From the IMG/VR virus record IMGVR_UViG_2531839479_000006: a stretch of DNA of 25,652 nucleotides, one strand, 5' to 3'. The position numbers and the translations under genes were made by a program. Below the pieces are notes generated by a model. The model searched no databases. It was not told the origin of the DNA and saw nothing but the letters and a program-made list of their open reading frames with translations. Shown here piece after piece: positions 3,973 to 17,867 of the stretch. Position 1 is the stretch's first letter; each line of letters opens with the position of its first letter. The stretch is from a virus. Taxonomy: Duplodnaviria; Heunggongvirae; Uroviricota; Caudoviricetes.

Positions 3973-4176
3973 TTACGGCGCTGTTTTAAGTCCTGCCGGG
4001 ATTTCGTTATTATCCATGTGAATAACTTTATCGACCGGATAGCAGTTACCGGGAATTTTTTGTTCTGCTGCGGCAGCCATGCATTCTTTCATTGAACCGT
4101 AAATGTCAATAACCATGTCAACAGGCTCGCCAGTATTAAGAAAAACAGTCAGAGTGAGGGCAATAGCAGTATTCAT
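3973..4176 (-). CDS. Small hydrophobic-N-terminus protein, 67 aa, in the position of ydfD in dicB operons
   Basis: Internal Met with AAGGA 8 nt upstream; N-terminus MNTAIALTLTVFL is signal/TM-like. Its ATG overlaps the dicB stop by 4 nt. The six-frame ORF extends to 4230 without a ribosome binding site. Confidence 0.5.
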   Translation of the reverse strand: MNTAIALTLTVFLNTGEPVDMVIDIYGSMKECMAAAAEQKIPGNCYPVDKVIHMDNNEIPAGLKTAP

Positions 4177-4361
4177 TGCCAGTATCCTTTTTGCATCGGG
4201 CGTAAACGTGCCAGCATTGAAAGAATGCATATTTTATTTAATAGCTCCCGTTCGTATTTTCTCTTATTAATGGCATCTTCAGTAAATACTGGGTTACTGA
4301 TAGTGACACCAATTTCAAAACAACCTTCAGACGTATTGACGTTTGGTAATAACGTTTCCAT
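4173..4361 (-). CDS. dicB: Cell division inhibitor DicB homologue, 62 aa
   Basis: 62-aa ORF METLLPNVNTSEGCFEIGVTISNPVFTEDAINKRK...LARLRPMQKGYWQ closely matches E. coli DicB as I recall it, and has the same length. GAGGA sits 7 nt upstream of the ATG. The six-frame ORF (4173-4457) has an unsupported N-terminal extension. Confidence 0.65.
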   Translation of the reverse strand: METLLPNVNTSEGCFEIGVTISNPVFTEDAINKRKYERELLNKICILSMLARLRPMQKGYWQ

Positions 4362-4540
4362 TATCGCGTCCTCAACAATGAATTTTGTGATGCGGTGCCT
4401 GGTGCCTCCAGGTGACGTTAACCAGTTAATAATTAACGCCGGATACAGAGAACCCACCCATAAGAACCAATACGGAAGTCAACTGGCCTTTTTAACTGTT
4501 CCGCGTGCGCTGAGCCGCATTCACCGCATCACAAAATTCA

Positions 4541-4605
4541 CTTTAAAAGGGGCGGGTATCATGGGAAAAACAAAACGGATACCCGCCAAAAGGTAATCAA
4601 CATGG
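4541..4605 (-). ncRNA. dicF: DicF-like small RNA candidate with 3' hairpin
   Basis: Minus-strand reading UUUUGGCGGGUAUCCGUUUUGU...GAUACCCGCCCCUUUU. The core resembles E. coli DicF (UUUGGCGGUAUCAGUUUUAC...CCGCCC, from memory). A 10-bp GC-rich stem followed by a short U-run ends about 180 nt upstream of dicB. Exact ends are not determinable by eye. Confidence 0.4.
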
Positions 4606-5151
4606 GTTGTTGCAGCGGGGTTGTCACTCAGGCGTATGGTCAACCTGACAACCCGGTGGACATTTGCGAGGAACGGAGAACCCCCGCCATACTTACCGCC
4701 GCGCCATTTCGCGGAGTGCCACAACCGGAAGCGCACGGTCGACGAAAATTTAACGACAGGCTATCTATGAACCAGCAACCTCGCCGTGCGCTTTCGCGTT
4801 ATGCTCTGACTTTTCAGAGAAATATCCTTTCAGTAAACTGTCAGTGCCGGATGCTCACCCGTGTCCGGCGCACACACTCCACCTCACCCGTGGAGAACTC
4901 CTTAATTACCAACCCTCAGGAGGGTGAATGTTAAAATCAACGCTTATTGCTAAATGCCTTTATCAAAATCGCATGGTAAGCAGCATTTCAATAGGCGAAT
5001 CTGCAGTTAAAAGTATTTTCGAAGAGTACTTTCGAAGAGTACTTTTCTGGGCGTGATTTTAATAAATGGAATACCAAATTACCGCCAGCAGTTTCAACGC
5101 GTATTCTGAAAGCAACTGAAAGAGCAAGTACAATTCGCGTTAACTATTTCA

Positions 5152-5559
5152 TTAAAGATTTGTGGGGTCTTTGATATCCACAGAGCCTAAAGTATGTGCA
5201 TATGGATGTGCTATTGTGCGCCCCTGTAAATTTGCATCGTTTTCTAAATCTTTTGATTTCAACAGAACATCAGCAAGACTCTGAATCATGCAGAGATAAT
5301 CAAAAACAGTTGCCGTTTCTGTTCTGACTGCTGAAATAACATGACCATTCAGGCAAACAGAAATTACCCGTTCATCAATATCGTTTTCCTGTTTTTGATT
5401 ATCAGAACAATATAGCCCTGAAAAAGCATTGCGCACATTACGAACCATATTATCGATGGTTTCTTTTTTGGTGTATGCCGGGTCAATTTTCACCAGACTA
5501 TCACCGAGTGTCGTTGCAGCAATTATCTGGATTTCTTTTGGTAAATCTTTAAATTCCAT
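5152..5559 (-). CDS. Hypothetical protein, 135 aa, leftward early operon
   Basis: Clean ORF with GAGG 7 nt upstream of the ATG. Same strand and tight spacing with the flanking leftward genes. No family recognised. Confidence 0.55.
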   Translation of the reverse strand: MEFKDLPKEIQIIAATTLGDSLVKIDPAYTKKETIDNMVRNVRNAFSGLYCSDNQKQENDIDERVISVCLNGHVISAVRTETATVFDYLCMIQSLADVLLKSKDLENDANLQGRTIAHPYAHTLGSVDIKDPTNL

Positions 5560-5581
5560 TATTAGCCTCGTTGGTTAACCA

Positions 5582-5800
5582 TTAACGTGGGTATGTAATC
5601 ATTCTGGCAATGCTTAATGCCGCTGCTTTTTCCAGATTGGTGATATCCTGCTCCAGAGCGGACAGATTTTCAGCCTGCTTAGCCCTGGCTTCATTGGCCC
5701 ATTTCAGGTCCTGCGCAGCCTTAATTTTCTGGTGCATCCACTCATAAAGTTCATCATCGGTATAGTCTGGCGCGATGATGACGGGTTCTCGTTTCTGCAT
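5582..5800 (-). CDS. Small protein, 72 aa, same size and position as YdfC of dicB operons
   Basis: ORF with GAGGA 6 nt upstream of the ATG. Identity inferred from gene order and size only. Confidence 0.55.
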   Translation of the reverse strand: MQKREPVIIAPDYTDDELYEWMHQKIKAAQDLKWANEARAKQAENLSALEQDITNLEKAAALSIARMITYPR

Positions 5801-5829
5801 ACTGATTCCTCGCGGTGCTGCTTCGCTTA

Positions 5830-5958
5830 TCAGCCGTTAGATTTTGCCAAACTGGAAAGCGCCTGTTTAAATTCGCTGAAGCTGAGGGCTTCTTCGCCTT
5901 CGGCAAGGCCTTCGAAGTATTCTTCGTAAGCCTTTTCCATGATTGTGTTGAAATCCAT
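5830..5958 (-). CDS. Small acidic protein, 42 aa, same size and position as YdfB; absent from the six-frame track
   Basis: Hand-translated MDFNTIMEKAYEEYFEGLAEGEEALSFSEFKQALSSLAKSNG with AGGTGA 5 nt upstream. It starts 2 nt after the stop of the upstream ORF. The track's 69-aa ORF 5754-5963 is a different frame with junk-like R/K/S composition. Confidence 0.5.
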   Translation of the reverse strand: MDFNTIMEKAYEEYFEGLAEGEEALSFSEFKQALSSLAKSNG

Positions 5959-5959
5959 A

Positions 5960-6115
5960 TCACTCACCTGAGTTTCTTTCCAGCCAGCGACGGGCACCAT
6001 TTTCGGTTTTAAACGTTTTGCTTTTGGTATGCGTCATCGCGGTGAACGTGCCGTCCTGATTGGGAAACACGCCGCACACCAGAGATTCGTTGTTGCCAAG
6101 ATCGATAGTATCCAT
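5960..6115 (-). CDS. Small protein, 51 aa, same size and position as YdfA
   Basis: Internal Met of the 78-aa ORF gives MDTIDLGNNESLVCGVFPNQDGTF..., 51 aa. It is the first gene after the candidate leftward promoter. Confidence 0.5.
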   Translation of the reverse strand: MDTIDLGNNESLVCGVFPNQDGTFTAMTHTKSKTFKTENGARRWLERNSGE

Positions 6116-6324
6116 GTTGACCTCATTTCCCCTTAACGCCGGGGTGGCGGAACAAAAACCTGCTGCATAGTTATTAAAGTTGAACCCTGCCGTCATGTTC
6201 TTACGCCTCGGGCTGGCTACTTAACCCCTGACCACTGCCTGGTAACTCGAAGTATTGCCCTGCATTCTGTAGGATGGGGTGAGGGAATGAATGAGGTTTA
6301 GAAAAACGAACTTTTCAGGTCAAT

Positions 6325-6340
6325 GTTTTTTTATCAAAAC
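6325..6340. promoter_or_regulatory. Candidate left operator (GTTTT-N6-AAAAC dyad) next to a leftward promoter
   Basis: GTTTTTTTATCAAAAC matches the dyad found twice between the cI-like and cro-like genes. On the minus strand it abuts a TTGACC -35 (6319-6324) and, 17 bp downstream, a weak TAAACC -10. Confidence 0.4.
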
Positions 6341-6407
6341 ATTTTAAGCAGGCAGCTGTTAAGCCATCACCACGATGGCATACAGTTAATCAAATAGATG
6401 AGGTTGG

Positions 6408-7046
6408 TTAAATATCTTGTTGAATTTTAAAGCATACGCCCAATATGCAAGATAGATCATCCAGCATAATTGAAGGGTAGCGAGGATTCGTGGGGACTAA
6501 AAGAATATCCGGCCCTTCTATCTCCAGTTTACGAATGACAGGTGTTGTGGTCCCTTTGGGTAAGGCAAGGACAATATTTCCTGGTTGTACGGTTCGATCG
6601 GGATCAACAAAAACTGTTGAACCATTTGGGATGGAAACTCCCCCACCAGATGTTGACATACTGTCACTCTCTAGAACAACTGCAAAGGTATTGACCGGGA
6701 TTTCTCCGACAAGCTGCACACAAGAGGTTATTGAGGAATTTTTCATATAATCACTCCAGCTTGCTGCCTGCTGAAGTGATAGTAGCGGAACCGTTTTTAT
6801 CGGCGGTAAAGATAGATCAAGCGAATCACCTGTATTTAACTCTCCTCCATTAAGAAGCCAATTTTCGTTTACTTTCAATATTTTTGCCAGTGAACTTATG
6901 TAACGCGAGGACGGCGCTCCTCCACCGTTCATCCATTGACTTACGGAGCCTTTTGATGCGCCAGTGCCATTGACAAGGTCTTTGCCTTTCAGGTTTAGCG
7001 CATGCATACGTTGGGTTATGCGTTCAGATATAGTTTGCTTGCTCAT
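6408..7046 (-). CDS. CI-like prophage repressor (N-terminal HTH, C-terminal LexA/S24 autopeptidase domain)
   Basis: The C-terminus follows lambda CI closely (ESDSM...VFVDPDRTVQPGNIV...LVPTNPRYPSI and an RKL lysine motif). N-terminal HTH. Divergent from the cro-like gene. Confidence 0.85.
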   Translation of the reverse strand: MSKQTISERITQRMHALNLKGKDLVNGTGASKGSVSQWMNGGGAPSSRYISSLAKILKVNENWLLNGGELNTGDSLDLSLPPIKTVPLLSLQQAASWSDYMKNSSITSCVQLVGEIPVNTFAVVLESDSMSTSGGGVSIPNGSTVFVDPDRTVQPGNIVLALPKGTTTPVIRKLEIEGPDILLVPTNPRYPSIMLDDLSCILGVCFKIQQDI

Positions 7047-7062
7047 GTTTTGATTTTAAAAC
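7047..7062. promoter_or_regulatory. Operator site 1 (GTTTTGATTTTAAAAC), abutting the cI start codon
   Basis: Dyad GTTTT-N6-AAAAC directly adjacent to the cI ATG. A TAAAAT -10-like hexamer on the minus strand lies 6 nt before the ATG, suggesting a leaderless cI transcript. Confidence 0.45.
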
Positions 7063-7092
7063 ACAGATGGTTTTGTTTCTTGACTTTCTTTG

Positions 7093-7108
7093 GTTTTGAT
7101 TATTAAAC
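7093..7108. promoter_or_regulatory. Operator site 2 (GTTTTGATTATTAAAC) overlapping the candidate rightward promoter
   Basis: Second copy of the dyad, overlapping the spacer and -10 region downstream of a TTGACT -35 (7079-7084), upstream of the cro-like gene. Confidence 0.4.
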
Positions 7109-7137
7109 TTTTGACGTTCAGTTTTATGGAGCGACTC

Positions 7138-7368
7138 ATGAAAAAATCAGAAGTATTAGGCTATTTTGGCGGAGTTGTTAAAACAGCCGCAGCTCTAGGA
7201 ACGTCAAAAACCACAGTCAGCATGTGGGGGGAAGAGGTTCCGTGGAAATGGGCGTTGCTAATTCAGGCAGTCACTGCCGGGGCGCTCAAATATGAGTTAC
7301 ACATACCGACGGTTGTCATTCCCGGTTCTGATCATAATCCGCCTTCTAACCAAGGGGGGGATTCATGA
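7138..7368 (+). CDS. Cro-like HTH regulator (YdaS-like)
   Basis: Small ORF divergent from the repressor. Start chosen at MKKSEVLG, which has GGAG 7 nt upstream. HTH-like segment VVKTAAALGTSKTTVSMW. Confidence 0.65.
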   Translation: MKKSEVLGYFGGVVKTAAALGTSKTTVSMWGEEVPWKWALLIQAVTAGALKYELHIPTVVIPGSDHNPPSNQGGDS

Positions 7369-13074: not shown

Positions 13075-13230
13075 TAGTTAAACACACTACCGCTGTAGAG
13101 TTGTTGTCATTAAATTGCGTCATAAGTAGAATTGCTGCGGGTGCTTGAGGCTATCTGTCTCAGGCATGAACACCAAAAGGCAGATAGAGAAAAGCCCCAC
13201 CCGACTATAAATCGAAGTGAGGCCAGTCTT

Positions 13231-13437
13231 ATGTCTCGACAACTGAAGATTAGCCTCTTACGTGCCGAAAGGCAAGGAGAAGCAGGCTATGAAGCAGCAA
13301 AAGGCGATGTTAATCGCCCTGATCGTCATCTGTTTAACCGTCATAGTGACGGCACTGATAACGAGGAAAGACCTCTGCGAGGTACGAATCCGAACCGGCC
13401 AGACGGAGGTCGCTGTCTTCACAGCTTACGAACCTGA
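13231..13437 (+). CDS. mok: Mok-like overlapping reading frame of the hok locus
   Basis: ORF starting MSRQLK with GAAGTGAGG upstream, overlapping hok in another frame as in hok/sok loci. Confidence 0.45.
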   Translation: MSRQLKISLLRAERQGEAGYEAAKGDVNRPDRHLFNRHSDGTDNEERPLRGTNPNRPDGGRCLHSLRT

Positions 13438-17617: not shown

Positions 17618-17693
17618 GGCCCTTTAGCTCAGTGGTGAGAGCGAGCGACTCATAATCGCCAGGTCGCTGGTTCAAATCCAGCAAGGGCCACCA
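17618..17693 (+). tRNA. tRNA with CAU anticodon, Ile2-like (lysidine type)
   Basis: Cloverleaf folded by hand: acceptor GGCCCTT/AAGGGCC, D-arm GCTC/GAGC, anticodon loop CTCATAA, T-loop TTCAAAT, CCA encoded. Close to E. coli ileX as I recall it. Confidence 0.85.
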
Positions 17694-17700
17694 TCACATA

Positions 17701-17777
17701 CCGCCATTAGCTCATCAGGATAGAGCGCCAGCCTTCGAAGCTGGTTGCGCGGGGTTCGAGTCCTCGATGGCGGTCCA
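17701..17777 (+). tRNA. tRNA-Arg (anticodon UCG)
   Basis: Acceptor CCGCCAT/ATGGCGG (C1-G72), D-arm GCTC/GAGC, anticodon stem CCAGC/GCTGG with loop CTTCGAA, T-loop TTCGAGT, CCA encoded. Confidence 0.75.
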
Positions 17778-17790
17778 TTATCTGTACCCT

Positions 17791-17867
17791 GCGTTGTTAG
17801 CTCAGCCGGACAGAGCAATTGCCTTCTAAGCAATCGGTCACTGGTTCGAATCCAGTACAACGCGCCA
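17791..17867 (+). tRNA. tRNA-Arg (anticodon UCU)
   Basis: Acceptor GCGTTGT/ACAACGC, anticodon stem ATTGC/GCAAT with loop CTTCTAA, T-loop TTCGAAT, CCA encoded. Confidence 0.85.

Follow-up and report, generated by a model that had tools for sequence, protein, structure and literature searches.

Three small leftward genes of an Escherichia coli prophage are orthologues of Qin ydfA, ydfB and ydfC and very probably head its early-left operon

Which genes are the three tightly packed, small leftward reading frames of this prophage, and which part could they play in it? The window, i.e. the whole stretch of 25,652 nt that was analysed (IMG/VR record IMGVR_UViG_2531839479_000006), carries them one after another on the minus strand: a 51-aa frame at 5960-6115, a 42-aa frame for an acidic peptide at 5830-5958, and a 72-aa frame at 5582-5800. 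The original prediction had proposed three leftward ORFs of these sizes, each with its own ribosome binding site, and a Shine-Dalgarno-like motif is indeed located 5-6 nt 5' of each ATG. The contexts, as read from the sequence, are GAGG-tcaac-ATG, AGGTGA-gtgat-ATG and GAGGA-atcagt-ATG, respectively. The close packing is likewise real, although the gaps of 2 to 30 nt that had been given are slightly off. We measured 1 nt between the stop of the first frame and the start of the second, 29 nt between the second and the third, and 22 nt between the third and a 135-aa ORF that follows.

The suggested identity with YdfA, YdfB and YdfC was assessed by a BLAST-type protein comparison with the Qin prophage of K-12, which gave the same order and the same lengths. 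YdfA shares 49 of its 51 residues with the K-12 protein (96%), YdfB 40 of 42 (95%), and YdfC 70 of 72 (97%); on the DNA level the identity is 95.6% over the stretch that starts 38 nt 5' of ydfA and ends 20 nt after ydfC. Residues 2-49 of YdfA match Pfam family PF07151 (DUF1391, the YdfA/YdaF family) with 100.8 bits (E 3.2e-29), above the gathering score of 27.3 bits. The corresponding PHROG families are phrog_751 for YdfA, phrog_2061 for YdfB (5.4e-26) and phrog_1744 for YdfC (2e-39), none of which has an assigned function. A megablast search with the surrounding 3.1 kb revealed 100% identity with the chromosome of E. coli strain 602354 (NZ_CP025847.1), where RefSeq labels the genes at the same coordinates 'DUF1391 family protein', 'protein YdfB' and 'protein YdfC'. 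The three ORFs are orthologues of ydfA, ydfB and ydfC of K-12 Qin. Since this annotation is already in the public record of the genome, the finding is correct but ordinary; the cluster was known before. A 'ydfA' on IncI plasmids (PMC12111858) shares the name only and is an unrelated gene.

The exact extent of the frames deserves a closer look. The mechanical ORF list gives extended forms of two of them, 78 aa for the ydfA frame and 56 aa for the ydfB frame, and the 42-aa ydfB itself lies below the size cut-off of the ORF track, an example of how size filters lose short conserved genes. The 78-aa form of ydfA, with 27 extra upstream codons, is reported by many gene callers. Homology with K-12, however, begins only 38 nt upstream of the ydfA ATG, and the DNA beyond is unrelated; as the extension is absent from K-12, the start of the 51-aa form is the conserved one. 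The K-12 stretch just 5' of ydfA holds a promoter-like TTGAC...TAATCT. An overlapping 69-aa frame (5754-5963), which had been taken for spurious, is interrupted by stop codons in five of the seven homologous loci and is therefore spurious indeed. The assignment had also been made to depend on conservation of the frames in related prophages, and there all three are open and unchanged in length.

We then compared the window with diverged copies taken from other genomes. For ydfA, dN/dS amounts to 0.10-0.18 in the more diverged pairs (the Salmonella copy has a dS of 1.15 and a dN of 0.18), and the values of 0.41 and 0.82 belong to two pairs that rest on just 4-5 substitutions. The range is 0.10-0.42 for ydfB, Cronobacter and Citrobacter copies included, and 0.13-0.68 for ydfC. 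In all three genes the third codon positions hold most of the substitutions, and the protein lengths are constant across genera. Judged by these substitution patterns, ydfA, ydfB and ydfC are each under purifying selection. One may conceive that ydfABC matter mainly as RNA, namely as the 5' part of an sRNA precursor, and that the peptides are incidental. We regard this as extremely unlikely, because the bias towards third positions, the dN/dS values, which are well under 1 for each frame when the more diverged copies are compared, and the invariant lengths of YdfA, YdfB and YdfC between genera all speak for the peptides. The same holds for prophages of Citrobacter and Cronobacter, in which ydfB alone is the first gene after the repressor, without ydfA, ydfC and dicB and with kilR instead.

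The distribution of the genes provides a picture of independent parts. Of 5426 complete E. coli genomes, 4485 have a match to the 534-bp cassette, and in 2330 of these the match extends over at least 80% of its length; partial matches comprise ydfA plus ydfB, ydfC alone, or ydfA alone. The cassette is also found in sequenced temperate phages, e.g. vB_EcoM-606R7, PhiR42_1 and Tritos. Homologues of YdfA were detected in Escherichia, Shigella and Salmonella, those of YdfC in Escherichia only, and the YdfB homologues of Salmonella, Cronobacter and Citrobacter have 42 aa and 74-88% identity. Within YdfC, the N-terminal third (about 24 residues) is nearly invariant whereas the C-terminal half is variable. 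The position right after the repressor is kept in prophages of Escherichia, Salmonella, Citrobacter and Cronobacter, and ydfA is the first gene downstream of the repressor in the window as well as in related loci L003 and L009-L014. Among 99 IMG/VR contigs that carry the DicF slot (see below), 35 have ydfABC as in K-12, 22 have ydfA and a gene like that for the 135-aa protein (orf135) without ydfB and ydfC, ten have ydfA and ydfB without ydfC or an orf135-like gene, and six have ydfC without ydfA or ydfB. Since each of the three genes is found without the others in related prophages, they are independent modules. As the cassette has matches in some 80% of the complete E. coli genomes and its proteins are uncharacterised, a lead on their function would be of modest use.

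What controls these genes? The gene upstream of ydfA (6408-7046, minus strand) encodes a CI/LexA-like prophage repressor of 212 aa with HTH_3 and Peptidase_S24 (4e-13) domains in Pfam; a LexA-family repressor of strain YL3 (238 aa) can be aligned with it over the full length, with 32% identity. In RefSeq, this repressor consists of no more than the C-terminal 113 aa (6408-6746), and the start chosen there probably makes it too short. An 18-bp palindrome, TGTTTT-N6-AAAACA, is located at 6324-6341, where it adjoins the -35 element of a putative leftward promoter, and a second exact copy is located on the far side of the repressor gene at 7046-7063. These are the only two sites in the 25.6-kb window, against an expectation of 0.2, and in 100 shuffles the number never rose to two. 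The palindromes around the repressor gene are probably operators. The putative early-left promoter (equivalent to pL or dicBp) at 6295-6323 on the minus strand consists of TTGACC (6323-6318), 17 nt, and TAAACC (6300-6295). A consensus promoter scan did not call a leftward promoter upstream of ydfA, so that the proposed site rests on our reading of the sequence. The same scan returned a rightward TTGACT-18-TAAACT at 7080-7109, which resembles the putative leftward promoter; the palindrome at 7046-7063 lies just upstream of this site, which faces a cro-like gene. That gene (7139-7368, plus strand) is marked 'frameshifted' in RefSeq, and its 3' end differs from that of YL3 near a run of G residues at 7352-7360, immediately ahead of the gene that follows (start at 7365).

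From position 7046 to position 1, the minus strand carries the repressor gene, ydfA, ydfB, ydfC, the 135-aa ORF, an untranslated stretch, dicB, a ydfD-like gene, and the genes for an exonuclease, xis and int. This string of genes has the layout of a lambdoid early-left operon. The cell-division inhibitor gene dicB (4173-4361, minus strand, 62 aa) is recognised by Pfam (DicB, 4.9e-38) and by RefSeq, and its product shares 55 of 62 residues with K-12 DicB; the ydfD-like DUF1482 gene (3973-4176, minus strand, 67 aa; Pfam 8.6e-20) encodes a protein with 44 of 63 positions identical to K-12 YdfD. The arrangement is that of a Qin-type dicBF operon, in which promoter-proximal ydfABC are followed by dicB and a ydfD-like gene on the same strand. 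The hallmarks of DicA/DicC control, by contrast, are missing, as the upstream repressor is the 212-aa protein with HTH and S24 peptidase domains and the promoter region is non-homologous to that of K-12. In K-12, a single promoter 5' of ydfA drives the entire operon and is repressed by DicA (PMC5069750, PMC10448788), and only DicF, DicB and YdfD of this operon have been characterised (2023 J Bacteriol, PMC10448788).

Taken together, we propose, with a probability of about 0.9, that YdfA, YdfB and YdfC are separately translated small cytoplasmic proteins encoded by what would be the first cistrons of a lambdoid prophage early-left operon. In the lysogen, the CI/LexA-type repressor, sitting at TGTTTT-N6-AAAACA beside the promoter, would keep ydfABC off. 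On induction, the three proteins would be the earliest products of the left operon, with ydfB probably being translationally coupled to ydfA. An alternative is that ydfABC act in the lysogen rather than in lytic growth, e.g. by contributing to superinfection exclusion, defence or stress tolerance, by means of leaky or stationary-phase expression. This would fit with the ydfA transcripts in stationary-phase K-12 (PMC10448788) and with the toxin-antitoxin and moron-like cassettes at neighbouring sites in related prophages; ydfA and ydfB were also among the hits when overexpressed genes were screened for oxidant resistance, albeit in data that are unvalidated. Yet ydfABC lie behind a repressor-controlled promoter, and none of the PADLOC defence models was matched by YdfA, YdfB or YdfC, which makes a role in the lysogen an unlikely one. 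The interval between repressor and ydfA is a second variable site among related prophages: it is empty in the window, and in loci L011-L014 it has received toxin-antitoxin pairs (PaaA2/ParE; HigB with an HTH partner; RelB/ParE).

The region downstream of ydfC also differs from K-12. The alignment with the K-12 prophage, which the original prediction had named as a check, gave a clean insertion of 647 bp before the dicB region, at 4915-5561; the blastn break points place K-12 positions 4062/4063 at window positions 5562/4914. This insertion is a two-gene convergent cassette. One of its genes is the 135-aa ORF (5152-5559, minus strand; phrog_1363, 2.5e-42), whose product has an N-terminal part of ~65 aa and a C-terminal part of ~70 aa, each of which is found separately in other proteins. 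The other is a convergent 77-aa ORF (4928-5174, plus strand; phrog_10348), which RefSeq marks as 'frameshifted'. According to the alignment, the frameshift is caused by a 13-bp tandem duplication (AAGTACTCTTCGA, twice in a row at 5019-5044); the ORF is intact in strains YL3 and O157 PV15-279, with ~96% DNA identity. The additional 135-aa gene that had been noted relative to K-12 is thus real, but the layout is not as unusual as had been thought, since it is common in other prophages. The distance to the DicF position had been put at about 540 bp of non-coding DNA; the length is right (~540-550 bp), but it is only partly non-coding, as approximately 237 bp of it are cassette and carry the frameshifted 77-aa ORF.

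With at least 80% coverage, the cassette is present in 646 of the 5426 E. coli genomes, mostly of O157:H7. At the same site, other prophages (loci L009-L013) have different cassettes with one or more forward genes and one convergent gene each, and the cassettes seen between ydfC and the slot encode 135+77, 66+92, 124+73 or 52+211+211 aa. Given these alternative cassettes at one site, the difference from K-12 is ordinary mosaicism. YdfC varies together with the cassette in its C-terminal half, which suggests that a recombination junction lies within ydfC.

A DicF region had been assumed to follow further downstream. This assumption did not hold: canonical DicF is absent, and another allele occupies the same place, which we call the DicF slot (4545-4606, minus strand). 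An untranslated spacer at 4607-4914 (minus strand) is homologous to the K-12 spacer between ydfC and dicF and nearly identical to it, and the whole interval between ydfC and dicB aligns with K-12 at a mean column identity of 91%. When the DicF position is viewed in this alignment, it becomes clear that the flanks are conserved with K-12 and a core of 53 nt is replaced. In the slot allele, a single-stranded 5' segment (CAUGUUGAUUACCUUUU) is followed by a G+C-rich hairpin of 10 bp (~4551-4587) and a U-tract; the fold energy is -20.4 kcal/mol (z -3.6). In a search of the window with Rfam RF00039 (DicF) no match reached the gathering score, and none was obtained with the limit relaxed to E<=10, while K-12 DicF, the positive control, scored 76.7 bits in the same search. 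Over 4300-6450, nothing believable was returned by Rfam at E<=10, a sub-threshold STnc100-like match being the only notable result. It falls on the dicB leader (4384-4538, minus strand; 33.5 bits vs a cut-off of 47, E 5e-5), which is conserved with K-12. Elsewhere, the same prophage has a sok antitoxin RNA (122 bits) at 13139-13294 and three tandem tRNA genes at 17618-17864, all on the plus strand.

To what extent does the slot vary? In a survey of 120 IMG/VR contigs and a few genomes, the fetched loci contained at least five 5' segments and at least five hairpins, in several combinations that are joined at a shared TTTGGCGG; Rfam recognises only those slot alleles that have the K-12 hairpin. 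Apart from the window, slot variants were noted in loci L003, L009, L011, L013, L062, L073, L104 and L122. The allele of the window is present, unannotated, in 153 of 5426 E. coli genomes, compared with 3969 for canonical DicF. In the literature searched, which covered only part of the DicF papers, we found no description of the slot alleles.

DicF of K-12 uses its 3' region to pair with ftsZ, and its 5' end to pair with xylR and pykA. Both pairing regions differ in the window allele. Its predicted duplex with the ftsZ leader is weaker than those of its own shuffles, by a whole-molecule energy that is a crude measure, and the duplex of canonical DicF with ftsZ is only 1.2 sd better than shuffles by the same whole-molecule energy. 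With a measure this crude, and the canonical allele no further ahead than that, we state only tentatively that the window allele may not target ftsZ. It is important to note that not every dicB-linked prophage has DicF; the assumption of an ftsZ-targeting DicF at every dicB locus is wrong for strain 602354 and about 150 other sequenced genomes. The slot allele is the most interesting item in the neighbourhood of ydfABC.

From these data we suggest, as a conjecture that we would sooner bet against than for, that the stretch from ydfC to dicB is a two-tier exchange site. The first tier would be the cassette hot-spot; the second would be an sRNA slot, in which a 5' target-recognition segment and a terminator hairpin are swapped independently among prophages. 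The window allele could then be an undescribed Hfq-type prophage sRNA that lacks the anti-ftsZ region, and it might be processed out of the ydfABC transcript in the manner of DicF and regulate other targets.

What the three proteins themselves could do was approached through their folds. In the AlphaFold model of YdfA (pLDDT 78), a helix comes after three strands, a fold that also occurs in RNA- and DNA-binding domains; its matches to AP2/dsRBD-like folds are sub-threshold. A Foldseek search of this model against the PDB gave no significant match, and when 24 YdfA homologues were scanned again with Pfam at E<=10, neither AP2 nor any other domain was detected. In BFVD, YdfA resembles small uncharacterised phage proteins and HNH endonuclease domains (best E 0.058). 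The PDB profile search with YdfA returned a chance-level similarity of 19 residues to a lambda-type head decoration protein (E 0.02), which is probably the source of the label 'head-DNA stabilization protein D' that ydfA bears in some phage records (ON470580, PV340562, ON470583) and that looks like an annotation artefact. The model of YdfC is a single helix (residues 15-69, pLDDT 88); its PDB profile search gave chance-level matches only, to coiled coils of the GCN4 type at E>0.1. PDB sequence searches gave no finding for YdfB or YdfC, and Pfam, NCBIfam and PADLOC gave no match for YdfB, YdfC or the 135-aa protein.

One might suppose that one of the ydf proteins, most plausibly YdfA, takes the place of lambda N and mediates read-through of the strong intrinsic terminator in the slot, which would allow expression of dicB, the exonuclease gene, xis and int. 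The interval between the repressor gene and dicB has no gene that resembles N, and an intrinsic terminator lies inside the operon; in K-12, the 1,146-nt ydfABC-dicF transcript stops at the DicF terminator, where most transcripts end (PMC5069750, PMC10448788). The possible relation of the YdfA model to RNA- and DNA-binding folds would also suit such a role, but these fold matches are not significant, and an arginine-rich motif is found in none of the three proteins. Moreover, prophages with the slot and dicB miss ydfA, ydfB or ydfC in many combinations. Since none of the three ydf genes is a constant companion of dicB and the terminator slot, it is decidedly improbable that one of them serves as an essential antiterminator, and this in turn favours the view that YdfA, YdfB and YdfC are dispensable accessory early proteins which bind host or phage macromolecules. 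This is our best guess, at slightly less than even odds. YdfA would then be a minimal nucleic-acid-binding domain of three strands plus a helix, YdfB a helical peptide of acidic character, and YdfC a protein that forms coiled coils and has an invariant N-terminal peptide.

How does the locus compare with known systems? Its closest counterpart is ydfABC (b1571-b1573) of the dicBF operon in the cryptic prophage Qin of K-12, with which it shares the gene order, the lengths of 51, 42 and 72 aa, the spacings of 1 and 29 nt, and dicB with a ydfD-like gene downstream of ydfABC. Qin differs in its repressor, which is the 135-aa DicA instead of a 212-aa CI/LexA-type protein, and in the lack of the 647-bp cassette after ydfC; the DicF core, in turn, is replaced in the window. 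Furthermore, ydfE and intQ of Qin are annotated as pseudogenes interrupted by IS2, whereas the window has ORFs for an 824-aa exonuclease, xis and int.

The prophages of O157:H7 and YL3 share ydfC, the 135-aa gene, the convergent 77-aa gene and dicB with the window, with the cassette at the same site. The orf135 proteins are 70-85% identical, and the region of the 77-aa gene has ~96% DNA identity. YL3 also has the type of DicF-slot allele that is found in the window. In the O157 copy, by contrast, a 99-aa gene (phrog_21318) replaces ydfA and ydfB, and the 5' segment of the slot is of the DicF type. The 77-aa gene, frameshifted in the window, is intact in both O157 PV15-279 and YL3.

Rac-like prophages are more distant. 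They lack ydfC and have sieB, kilR and ydaE in place of the sRNA slot and dicB, but as in the window the first gene after the repressor is a DUF1391 gene (ydaF) or a ydfB homologue, and a division inhibitor gene (kilR) and an exonuclease gene then follow. In lambda, the leftward early operon has small non-essential genes between pL and kil that are mosaic and dispensable. The parallel with these genes is a functional analogy only, as no sequence similarity was found and the window has no homologue of N. In both cases, nevertheless, small genes stand at the start of a repressor-controlled operon, 5' of a division inhibitor, recombination genes, xis and int.
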